NCBI RefSeq assembly: GCF_024502345.1
Contig: NZ_JALDNN010000001.1
Length of the DNA: 64,000 nucleotides
Direction: 5' to 3' (one strand)
Source of the DNA: Escherichia coli
Lineage (GTDB): Bacteria > Pseudomonadota > Gammaproteobacteria > Enterobacterales > Enterobacteriaceae
The notes under the pieces are model-generated. The model had not been told where the DNA came from. It searched no databases and saw only the letters and a list, made by a program, of their open reading frames with translations. Positions 48,430-51,195 of this stretch are shown here, in pieces (position 1 is the first letter of the stretch; each line of letters starts with the position of its first letter). The position numbers were made by a program, and so were the translations under genes.

Positions 48430-48649
48430 ATTGTACCTTTTTGATTAACCATTGGGGTGAGGGAACCCAATACGTACGACACGTCTGTTACCTTAACATA
48501 ATAACGTGCTTACCCTTTTTTCGAGCCGCCGCATGATACTGCTTTACGTTGACAATGCAATGGTTAATTTTCACGCAATCGTTAACCTGGTTTGCTTACG
48601 GACTCACAGGGCGTAAACTAGCGCCGTTTTTTTATGTGATGAGAAGAAA

Positions 48650-48895
48650 ATGACCGATCTCTTTTCCAGCCCTGACCACACACTCGACGCACTTGGCCTG
48701 CGCTGCCCGGAACCAGTCATGATGGTGCGCAAAACAGTGCGCAATATGCAGCCAGGTGAAACGTTGCTGATTATTGCTGACGATCCGGCGACGACCCGCG
48801 ATATTCCTGGGTTTTGTACCTTTATGGAACACGAACTGGTTGCTAAAGAGACGGATGGACTGCCTTATCGTTATTTGATTCGTAAAGGCGGTTGA
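48650..48895 (+). CDS. tusA: Sulfurtransferase TusA, 81 aa
   Basis: ORF translation [53 protein letters not shown]... (CPxP active site). Confidence 0.97.
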
Positions 48896-48929
48896 TGGGG
48901 AAAGATTGGCTTCGATGCCGCCTTTTCCC

Positions 48930-48990
48930 CTCACCCTAACCCTCTCCCCAGAGGAGCGAGGGGACCGATCGCGCTCAATGTTGCGATCGG
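48930..48990. repeat. GC-rich structured intergenic element between convergent tusA and zntA
   Basis: cctcaccctaaccctctccccagaggagcgagggga followed by an 8-bp stem ccgatcgc ... gcgatcgg; no flanking T-run; family not identified. Confidence 0.4.
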
Positions 48991-48996
48991 TTTGCC

Positions 48997-51195
48997 TTAT
49001 CTCCTGCGCAACAATCTTAACGCATTCGCTGTCACCAGCACCGTCGCACCCGTATCTGCCAGCACCGCCAGCCATAGTCCGGTCATTCCTAACAGCGTGG
49101 TGACGAGGAAGATCCCTTTCAGCCCCAGCGCAATAGTGATGTTCTGGCGGATATTGGCGTGAGTGGCGCGTGCCAGTTCGATCATTTGCACCAGACCGCG
49201 CAGGTGGTTATGGGTTAATGCTGCGTCGGCGGTTTCCAGCGCCACGTCTGTGCCGCTGCCCATTGCAATCCCGATGGCGGCAGCTTTCATCGCTGGCGCG
49301 TCGTTAATACCGTCACCGACCATCGCCAGCGGCGCATGTTGATTCAGCTCGGTCACCGCTTTGACTTTATCTTCCGGCAACAGGCCCGCTTTAAACTCCA
49401 GCCCCAGCTCCCCGGCAATTGCCGCCGCTGCGCGTGGATTATCGCCGGTGAGGATCACCCCTTTGACGCCCAGCGCGTTCAGTTCACTGATGGCAGTTGC
49501 AGCATCGGCGCGCAGGGTATCCTGTAACGCAATGACACCAAGCACGTCATCGTTACGTACTACCAGCACTACCGTTTGCCCGGCGCTTTCCAGTTCGTTA
49601 ATTAAACCAGCAAATGCATCAGCGGGATGTTTCCCGGCAGCGCAAATCAATACGCGCTCACCGTTAACCTGCGCTTCAATGCCAGACCCGACCAGCGCCC
49701 GCTGTGATTCGGCGGCGGGAATGGCGAGTGCAGCAACCTGTGCTTCGCGCACGATGGCCTGCGCCAGTGGATGCGTCGCGCCTTGCTCGACCGCCGCCGC
49801 CAGTGTCAGCAGTTCAGATTCACTAATACCCGTTGCCGGATGAATCGCGGTAACGCGCGGTTTACCGACGGTCAGCGTACCGGTTTTATCAAACGCCACC
49901 TGTGTAACACGACCTAGCTGCTCCAGCGCCGCACCGCCTTTAATTAACGCCCCACGACGTGCCGCTGCTGCCAGCCCGGAGGTAATCGCCGCGGGCGTGG
50001 AGATAACTAACGCACACGGGCAGCCAATCAGCAGCAGCGTCAGCCCTTTATAAATCCACTCTTGCCAGCTGGCGGCAAATAGCAGCGGCGGCACCAGCGT
50101 TACCAGCAGGGCGACGGCCATAATTGCTGGCGTATAAATACGGCTGAAACGGTCGATAAACCGCTCAATGGGGGCGCGGCGCTCTTCGGCTTCTTCGATC
50201 AGTTTCAGAATCCGGTCAATGGCGCTGGCACCCGGTTCTGACAGCACTTCCAGCGTTACCAGACGGTCTACGCTGGTGGCTCCTGCAGGAACTTTATCGC
50301 CCGTCGCGCGCTCCACCGGAATGGATTCTCCGGTCAGGGCGCTTTCATCAAAACTGGCAAACGGTGAGAGCAGTTTACCGTCGGCAGGCAAACGCCCACC
50401 TGCGGCGACTTCAATCACATCGCCAGGCCGCAGGCTGTTAATCGCCACCTCTTCCCGCTCACCGTTACGCAGGCGCGTGGCGGTTTCTGGTTTCAGCGCC
50501 ATTAACGCGCTAACGCCCTGACGCGCGCGGCTGGCGGCCCAGCCTTCCAGTCGTTCACCAATCAAAAACAGCAGCAACACCATCGCAGCTTCAGCCGTTG
50601 CGCCAATAAACAGTGCACCAATAGCGGCTACGCTCATTAAGGTTTCAATGGCGAAGTAGCTGCCGGATTTGATCAGCCGTAATGCCTGACGAGCAATCGG
50701 GTACAGCCCAACCAGCGTGGTCGCGATAAACGCCAGTTGCCCAAACGGATGATTAAATTGCTCCAGACCCCAGCTGATTGCCATCATCACGATTAGCGTA
50801 ATCAGCGGCAGATTCTCTTTCAGGCGCGATGCTTGTGGCTCGTCGGCGGCCTGCTCATCGCGCAGGGAATAGCCCGCTTTTTGCACCGCAGATTCAACCT
50901 GGGCACGGATGTCATTGTCGGCATCGACCACCAGTTTTTCGGTGGCGAACAGTACCTGCACCTGATTCACACCTGCAAGCTGGCGCACGGCATTTTCTAC
51001 CTTGCGCGCACAGGCGGCGCAGTCCATGCCGCTGACTTTCCAGCTATAGCGGGTGCCGGAGACGTTTTCAGAGAGCGTTGGCGAGCTGGAACATGCGCCG
51101 TCGCAGCAACAGTCGTTGGCGTTCTGTACCGTGGTTAGCGGTTTGAACGCAGCAAATTGAGGGGCTTTCTTGCCGTGATTGTCAGGAGTCGACAT
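48997..51195 (-). CDS. zntA: Zn/Cd/Pb-exporting P1B-type ATPase ZntA, 732 aa
   Basis: ORF with N-terminal GMDCAAC metal-binding motif, CPC transmembrane motif and DKTGT phosphorylation site. Confidence 0.97.
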   Translation of the reverse strand: MSTPDNHGKKAPQFAAFKPLTTVQNANDCCCDGACSSSPTLSENVSGTRYSWKVSGMDCAACARKVENAVRQLAGVNQVQVLFATEKLVVDADNDIRAQVESAVQKAGYSLRDEQAADEPQASRLKENLPLITLIVMMAISWGLEQFNHPFGQLAFIATTLVGLYPIARQALRLIKSGSYFAIETLMSVAAIGALFIGATAEAAMVLLLFLIGERLEGWAASRARQGVSALMALKPETATRLRNGEREEVAINSLRPGDVIEVAAGGRLPADGKLLSPFASFDESALTGESIPVERATGDKVPAGATSVDRLVTLEVLSEPGASAIDRILKLIEEAEERRAPIERFIDRFSRIYTPAIMAVALLVTLVPPLLFAASWQEWIYKGLTLLLIGCPCALVISTPAAITSGLAAAARRGALIKGGAALEQLGRVTQVAFDKTGTLTVGKPRVTAIHPATGISESELLTLAAAVEQGATHPLAQAIVREAQVAALAIPAAESQRALVGSGIEAQVNGERVLICAAGKHPADAFAGLINELESAGQTVVLVVRNDDVLGVIALQDTLRADAATAISELNALGVKGVILTGDNPRAAAAIAGELGLEFKAGLLPEDKVKAVTELNQHAPLAMVGDGINDAPAMKAAAIGIAMGSGTDVALETADAALTHNHLRGLVQMIELARATHANIRQNITIALGLKGIFLVTTLLGMTGLWLAVLADTGATVLVTANALRLLRRR

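Follow-up and report, generated by a model that had tools for sequence, protein, structure and literature searches.

Genes and Spacer at the tusA-zntA Junction

The window, i.e., the whole stretch of 64,000 nucleotides of Escherichia coli DNA that was analysed, carries the genes tusA and zntA in convergent orientation. A short spacer lies between them and constitutes the 3'UTR of both genes.

48650-48895, + strand: tusA, 81 aa, TGA stop codon at 48893-48895 (ORF list; RefSeq annotation of the orthologous K-12 locus and of other loci)
48997-51195, - strand: zntA, 732 aa, stop codon at 48997-48999 (ORF list; RefSeq annotation)
48896-48996, no strand: convergent tusA/zntA spacer, 101 bp

The spacer harbors a GC-rich element that exceeds chance expectation. 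On either strand the folding of the spacer beats 200 of 200 dinucleotide shuffles (z of -4.0 and -4.6). The 21-mer core occurs a single time in the 64-kb window when three mismatches are allowed, and 0.00 occurrences are expected. RefSeq lists no feature at this locus in K-12, nor under any BLAST match listed. This is the reason why the element looks unassigned, and readers who have nothing but the letters will therefore keep flagging it.

At the other end of tusA a terminator-like hairpin, GGCGTAAACTAGCGCC followed by GTTTTTTTAT, is located at 48610-48635 (+ strand), about 15 nt upstream of the start codon. It belongs to the divergent yhhQ/tusA region and could be a leader or attenuator, or else the end of an unannotated upstream transcript.

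Identity of the Spacer Element

The element between tusA and zntA is a copy of the BoxC repeat, which also goes by the names PIT element and TMECO; its K-12 ortholog is catalogued as TMECO #16. BoxC is short and non-coding and is dispersed over intergenic DNA of E. coli and of related enterobacteria. The three names were introduced as BoxC (Bergler et al., 1992; Bachellier et al., 1999), PIT (Hoyne and Maher, 2000, 2002) and TMECO (PMC4666352). Published copy numbers for K-12 are 23 TMECO, 25 PIT and 32 BoxC, and BoxC has been tabulated as a 56 bp repeat with 32 copies in E. coli (PMC2267715). Hence neither the family nor the K-12 copy is new: the repeat was described in 1992 and re-described in 2000 and 2015, and the copy stands in a published table. 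A literature search retrieved nothing newer on the BoxC repeat. The first BoxC description presumably concerned the copy that precedes fabI (envM), which is #9 in the table of Holder et al.

When the spacer was compared by blastn with complete E. coli genomes, matches were obtained in 5,425 of 5,426, nearly all of them chromosomal, with a median of 17 places per genome and a maximum of 32. The original prediction had suspected a dispersed GC-rich repeat family without being able to name it, and this suspicion was correct; the family is BoxC/PIT/TMECO. A motif unique in the genome, with transcripts terminating elsewhere, had been named as speaking against the prediction; the motif is multi-copy, and zntA 3' ends lie in the spacer (see below).

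Paralogues were retrieved from 17 other loci, 14 from K-12 and three from other strains (soxR-ghxP, phnP-yjdP, phnE-phnD). Sixteen paralogues align over TTCCCCTCACCCTAACCCTCTCCCC-NNN-GGGGCGAGGGGACYG, followed by a weaker tail, NNCGNGC.C.TTTT. The core is near-invariant among the 18 copies which the core alignment took in; the exceptions are the loop and the A at 48955 of the window. Similarity to independent paralogues extends past the core into the GACYG... tail. The possibility that the paralogous matches are artefacts was excluded by these alignments. An nhmmer profile was built from 16 E. coli paralogues, leaving out the tusA-zntA locus itself, and it has one match in the window:

48920-48987, + strand (the C-rich strand): BoxC repeat unit, sole nhmmer match in the window (64.9 bits, E 1.5e-19)

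Within the 64 kb there is no second BoxC copy and no type-B or hairpin-only relative.

BoxC/PIT/TMECO elements are defined on the G-rich strand by the succession CCCTC(G/T)CCC(C), a loop, GGGGAGAGGG, TTA or CCG, and GGGTGAGGG(G). The - strand of the window reads CCCTCGCTCCTCTGGGGAGAGGGTTAGGGTGAGGGG. It comprises all three blocks and is identical to TMECO #16 in 35 of 36 positions, and its TTA loop makes the window copy type A. In Table 1 of Holder et al. (2015; PMC4666352) TMECO #16 is entered as 'A mm' (one mismatch) at MG1655 3,608,684-3,608,719, an interval which falls between the end of zntA at 3,608,649 and the start of tusA at 3,608,751. The window copy is wholly intergenic, and the same holds for 15 of the 15 K-12 type-A loci examined, tusA-zntA included.

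Several type-A copies adjoin an inverted second partner, which is a type B copy or else a short hairpin, e.g., CTCCCTCTCCCCATTGGGGTGAGGGG. Examples are present in the retrieved loci L003 (1575-1600), L002 (1460-1485) and L004 (1455-1490). These partners match the A+B pairs reported by Holder et al. (PMC4666352).

Anatomy of the Window Copy

Read on the + strand, the architecture of the repeat is CCCCTCACCC-TAA-CCCTCTCCCC-AGA-GG(A)GCGAGGGG, to which the conserved tail GACCGATCGC is joined. The string originally quoted for the element, cctcaccctaaccctctccccagaggagcgagggga, is indeed present at 48929-48964 of the + strand. The individual parts are as follows.

48925-48967, + strand: strongly conserved core TTCCCCTCACCCTAACCCTCTCCCCAGAGGAGCGAGGGGACCG; its reverse complement is K-12 TMECO #16 but for one base
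48927-48936, + strand: outer block CCCCTCACCC, the 'third strand' block of a proposed intrastrand triplex
48937-48939, + strand: loop TAA, read as TTA on the G-rich strand, which marks TMECO type A
48940-48949, + strand: middle block CCCTCTCCCC, 5' arm of the BoxC hairpin
48950-48952, + strand: loop AGA
48953-48963, + strand: inner block GGAGCGAGGGG, 3' arm of the BoxC hairpin
48964-48974, + strand: tail ACCGATCGCGC
48964-48972, + strand: left arm of the tail stem, ACCGATCGC, which is the conserved BoxC tail (family consensus GACYGNNCGNGC)
48983-48991, + strand: right arm of the tail stem, GCGATCGGT, locus-specific and absent from the paralogues
48992-49000, + strand: T-rich tail TTGCCTTAT after the stem in tusA-sense, running into the zntA stop codon
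48897-48930, + strand: flanking hairpin GGGGAAAG...CTTTTCCCC, formed with the left end of BoxC; K-12 has GGGGCTGA, and the hairpin is not conserved there

The window copy has an A at 48955 where K-12 and all 16 paralogues have a G. The hairpin thereby acquires a second mismatch, and its RNA fold loses 1.8-3.6 kcal/mol. The RNA folding energies amount to -17 to -26 kcal/mol for BoxC and to about -18.8 kcal/mol for the tail stem. The left flank of BoxC reads TGGGGAAAGATTGG in the window (48896-48912) and TAGGGGCTGATTGG in K-12 (L001, 3233-3251); because of this difference the flanking hairpin is mostly lost in K-12.

The two arms at 48964-48972 and 48983-48991 form a perfect inverted repeat of 9 bp, 100% complementary, with a loop of 10 nt. 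The earlier reading had seen a GC stem of 8 bp: its arms, ccgatcgc at 48965-48972 and gcgatcgg at 48983-48990, are in place, but the length has to be corrected to 9 bp with the flanking A-T pair. Similarly, the claim that the stem lacks flanking U-runs holds for the - strand, where CCCCTCGC follows, but not for the + strand, where TTTGCCTTAT has 5 T in its first 8 positions. The GC stem is not a separate element; it is the BoxC tail paired with locus-specific sequence. The right arm is common to the orthologous copies in E. albertii, where it is degenerate, and in a Pseudocitrobacter MAG, and the loops are 7 nt longer there. A complement of the tail of at least 5 bp exists in 5 of 17 BoxC copies versus 1.6 expected, a marginal result (P ~0.02), and two other statistics for a tail-anchored second hairpin as a family feature were not significant in these 17 copies. 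The family-wide result is too weak, and the right arm is therefore treated as locus-specific.

A scan for consensus terminators flagged nothing in the spacer. It probably missed the 9-bp stem because the 10-nt loop exceeds the 3-8 nt limit of the tool. The T-rich stretch at 48992-49000 is at best a weak intrinsic-terminator tail; the stem together with TTTGCCTTAT could serve as a weak intrinsic terminator for tusA.

Alleles of the Spacer and Its Content in Other Genera

Three forms of the spacer are common in E. coli. The 82-nt allele of the window is the commonest and is found exactly in 2,635 of 5,426 genomes; the K-12 allele is found exactly in 2,064. A long form with a spacer of 260 bp occurs in 532 genomes (~10%), e.g., in Nissle 1917, ATCC 25922 (L005, 1471-1730) and CU37RT-2 (L006, 1482-1741). 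Its BoxC has lost 6 nt of the outer block (CCCTTACCCTCTCCCC), carries another G-to-A change and precedes two REPs (a BIME). In the 532 genomes the stem has a degenerate right arm. No REP-like match to the REP consensus (GCCGGATGCGGCG / GCCGGATAAGGCG) is present in 48896-48996 of the window. E. albertii resembles the 260-bp form, and this likeness indicates that the 101-bp form may be a deletion derivative.

A survey of the tusA loci of 80 Enterobacterales species (L021-L100) yielded a highly variable junction. It ranges from a 4-nt overlap of the genes in Kosakonia and Pantoea to more than 1 kb in some genera; in most Citrobacter species the spacer measures 27-103 bp. REP/BIME sequences fill it in Citrobacter, Klebsiella, Kluyvera, Lelliottia and Trabulsiella. 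The spacer of Enterobacter soli and strain RIT691 holds a bare CCCTCTCCC...GGGAGAGGG hairpin, and in the Enterobacter cloacae complex tusA is followed by a type-B-like BoxC at loci where zntA is not its neighbour. The wide variation of the junction and the differing repeats indicate that the spacer is a recurrent sink for GC-rich palindromic repeats and not a conserved regulatory element.

In two genomes of the survey extra DNA separates tusA and zntA, i.e., in E. albertii (L021, ~1600-2550; spacer of 1,111 bp) and in SCPM-O-B-8794, an 'E. coli' according to GTDB (L022, ~1490-2240; spacer of 794 bp). The extra DNA contains short ORFs which resemble small membrane proteins. Both genomes also deviate in the C-terminus of tusA, and this suggests that the 3' end of the gene has recombined.

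A clean empty site or a target-site duplication was found neither at aaeR-tldD, nor at adk-hemH, nor at the outgroup tusA-zntA junctions. The BoxC locus aaeR-tldD is occupied in essentially all genomes, and the outgroup tusA-zntA spacers hold other repeats. At adk-hemH a segment of 157 bp in K-12, comprising BoxC #6 and the adk terminator (L009, 278-434), is swapped in about 2,500 genomes for an unrelated segment of ~53 bp which contains a hairpin (L101, strain RM9872-C1). This exchange is cassette-like and not a clean indel.

Transcript 3' Ends at BoxC Copies

Published MG1655 coordinates were transferred by the relation window position = 48997 + (3,608,649 - MG1655 position), verified on the K-12 sequence. 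In the SMRT-Cappable-seq data (Yan et al., 2018, Supplementary Data 1) the zntA transcription start at 3,606,421 is connected to a 'novel TTS' at 3,608,685.

48961, - strand: equivalent of the zntA 3' end, on base 2 of the BoxC core and 3 nt beyond the base of the 9-bp stem

Of 184 reads from the zntA start site, 15 end at the TTS, 64 end up to 50 bp downstream and 38 pass (Yan et al., 2018). The 50 bp downstream cover BoxC, and the 64 ends are scattered. In this single dataset, which has low read counts and stems from K-12 and not from the window strain, 38 of the 117 reads that reach the site (about one third) read through, with a median extension of 187 bp. Published 3'-end data of this kind do not separate termination from processing. 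The curated Term-seq 3' ends from three conditions (Adams et al., 2021) include none in the spacer for either tusA or zntA, and neither gene has an entry in the TERMITe supplements.

For the tusA-sense strand, Supplementary file 2 of Adams et al. (2021) reports a region of Rho-dependent termination at MG1655 3,607,955 (- strand), antisense to zntA.

49691, + strand: equivalent of the Rho-termination region, resolution ~+/-800 nt (Adams et al., 2021)

Reads upstream and downstream of this region number 90 and 24 without bicyclomycin (BCM) and 128 and 100 with it; the score, which is computed from 800-nt windows, is 2.93 (P 2.8e-5; Adams et al., 2021). These counts suggest that tusA-sense transcription traverses the spacer and is ended by Rho beyond it. 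The reads could instead originate from an antisense promoter inside zntA.

Two further BoxC loci are covered by such data. The hemB TTS at 388,690 is positioned inside the BoxC of that locus, with 41 reads at the TTS, 37 up to 50 bp downstream and 1 passing (SMRT-Cappable-seq). In the tauD-hemB copy, BoxC #5 (L008, 301-336), the hemB 3' end directly follows the outer block CCCCCTCACCC, a single read out of 79 passes, and there is no canonical terminator nearby. This 3' end is not listed by Term-seq in the three conditions (Adams et al., 2021). The transcripts of adk, on the other hand, cross their BoxC and proceed to a canonical terminator, GGCCG...CGGCC-TTTT, 60 nt on. This is documented in two datasets, with ends at 497,938 (SMRT-Cappable) and 497,939 (Term-seq). 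Near six other BoxC loci the SMRT-Cappable data have no entries. The passage of adk transcripts shows that BoxC does not act as a terminator in general, in line with what Holder et al. (PMC4666352) relate of the reporter assays of Hoyne and Maher, in which PIT had neither promoter nor terminator activity.

A Probable Passenger in the 3'UTR

We consider it highly probable that the element is both a BoxC copy and a passenger. BoxC at tusA-zntA would have no dedicated regulatory role and would simply be tolerated, a conclusion drawn from polymorphism and not from fitness. Three spacer alleles are common and the commonest one weakens the stem; further, the same spacer holds different repeats in different genera.

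What happens at the RNA level is a more tentative matter, and the following details are possible rather than probable. The transcripts of both genes run into BoxC, and therefore its stable RNA hairpins would be expected to behave like a REP-type 3'UTR structure. The 3' ends of zntA mRNA would accumulate inside BoxC and at the base of the 9-bp stem, likely through 3'-to-5' exonuclease trimming back to the stable structure or through leaky factor-independent stopping, and about one third of the zntA transcripts would read through the spacer. The tusA-sense RNA, which corresponds to the C-rich strand, would not be stopped efficiently at the spacer, and its transcription would be ended by Rho several hundred nt on, antisense to zntA. 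We infer that this BoxC is not a canonical intrinsic terminator. The original prediction had likewise argued against a plain intrinsic terminator, and the negative terminator scan and the adk transcripts that cross their BoxC uphold it.

Could the spacer nevertheless be a bidirectional intrinsic terminator in which the 9-bp GC stem and the BoxC hairpin stop polymerases arriving from tusA and zntA? The stem is perfect and stable, the computed folds are strong (-17 to -26 kcal/mol in the case of BoxC, about -18.8 kcal/mol in that of the tail hairpin), 5 of 8 positions in the + strand tail TTTGCCTT are T, the zntA 3' end is situated 3 nt after the stem, and Rfam aligns stem and tail with the terminator hairpin of Hrs13, although far below threshold. 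Yet the zntA-sense strand is devoid of any T-run, 38 of 117 zntA reads pass and 64 stop at scattered positions, no 3' end of tusA or zntA is listed by Term-seq in three conditions, and on the tusA strand a Rho-dependent drop occurs downstream. Moreover, the 532 long-form genomes have a degenerate right arm, adk reads cross their own BoxC, and PIT/BoxC was inactive in earlier reporter work as far as it is related by Holder et al. (PMC4666352). A bidirectional terminator is thus quite unlikely. Action at the level of DNA, which we also regard as unlikely, was proposed for TMECO by Holder et al.: the G-rich strand, when single-stranded, would fold into an intrastrand triplex or a G-quadruplex (GGGG-AGA-GGG-TTA-GGG-TGA-GGGG), block polymerases and promote local rearrangement. 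Consensus oligonucleotides do form a stable triplex in vitro (Tm 70-82 C, CD/NMR), and sequence variability is greater around TMECO loci than around controls (PMC4666352). The three allelic forms, including a slippage-like deletion of 6 nt in one block and the gain or loss of a BIME, the replacement of the BoxC-bearing 157 bp at adk-hemH by unrelated 53 bp in ~2,500 genomes, and the scattered zntA 3' ends inside BoxC, which arise with the G-rich strand as non-template, are in line with this proposal. Against it, DMS footprinting in vivo gave no triplex and earlier in vivo assays were negative (PMC4666352); convergent spacers are variable even when BoxC is missing, as evident from REP/BIME in other genera; and adk transcription, for which the G-rich strand is also the non-template, crosses BoxC. 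The commonest allele weakens the structure, and the extra mismatch of the window allele should lower the stability of a triplex. Even with G-quadruplexes enabled, folding still favours the hairpin. Instability caused by DNA structure is difficult to tell apart from the variability that convergent spacers show in general.

A small regulatory RNA, either an Hfq-dependent sRNA similar to Hrs13 or an sRNA derived from the tusA 3'UTR, is extremely improbable. The idea draws on a weak full-length Rfam match to Hrs13 (RF02631) at 48914-48997 (+ strand) with 19.7 bits, which is far below the gathering threshold of 52 and whose alignment rests only on two generic hairpins. The scan found no promoter-like site, Term-seq lists no 3' end, and the sequence is a multi-copy repeat. 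The Rfam matches to Hrs13, sX8, mir-965 and ylbH were all sub-threshold and were rejected. A bolder proposal takes BoxC in general as a module that acts mainly on RNA and not as a DNA triplex, i.e., as a REP-like, orientation-dependent 3'UTR element whose hairpins set or protect mRNA 3' ends. In one orientation this would be the task of the BoxC hairpins, which the 9-bp tail stem would strengthen at tusA-zntA; the zntA and hemB 3' ends, which lie at or inside BoxC copies, may be compared. In the opposite orientation the G-free, C-rich half at 48925-48949 would be a Rho loading site, and loading there would explain a Rho-dependent stop of tusA-sense transcription inside antisense zntA. We think this generalization unlikely. 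If it is true, a repeat family that has lacked a function for 30 years would acquire one, in contradiction to the negative results of earlier reporter assays.

The tolerated passenger, then, is the reading which we prefer, and the main gain of the analysis is a correct label for the tusA-zntA element. Mildly new, and arising from the combination of public datasets, are the 3' ends at two BoxC copies (zntA and hemB) and the spacer as a sink for repeats. Both are of specialist interest: the former given that BoxC was reported to be without terminator activity, the latter as a convergent spacer that collects different repeat families across the Enterobacterales.

Comparison With Known Systems

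The closest relatives are the BoxC/PIT/TMECO elements of type A mm. The window copy has in common with them the three blocks, the TTA loop, the single T/C mismatch of the stem and the GACYG tail, as well as the intergenic position and the multi-copy distribution. It differs from K-12 TMECO #16 by the A at 48955, which is a C-to-T change when read on the G-rich strand, and from the BoxC paralogues by a tail which pairs with a locus-specific complement of 9 nt that most paralogues lack.

REP/BIME sequences which act as stabilisers and terminators in 3'UTRs, e.g., REP325, are likewise dispersed GC-rich palindromic repeats in 3'UTRs and convergent spacers. As in the case of BoxC, transcript 3' ends accumulate at them, read-through is partial and Rho is involved. 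They even share the site, since the tusA-zntA spacer of Citrobacter, of Klebsiella and of ~10% of E. coli genomes holds REP/BIME. However, the sequences of REP and BoxC are unrelated, and for BoxC a role at the RNA level is inferred. With ~20-30 copies BoxC is less abundant than REP, which is present in roughly 500-600 copies, and it is not known to have an associated transposase (RAYT). A dual, context-dependent behaviour, convergent spacers included, has been described for REPs (preprint, bioRxiv 10.64898/2026.03.23.713779).

With a canonical Rho-independent terminator the element shares a GC-rich stem near gene 3' ends and, on one strand, a partial T-rich tail. It departs from it by a zntA-sense strand without a T-run, a 10-nt loop, substantial read-through and negative reporter assays. 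The boxC of the lambda nut and rrn antitermination sites, finally, is an RNA signal that belongs to the Nus antitermination system; it is unrelated to the BoxC repeat and has only the name in common with it.
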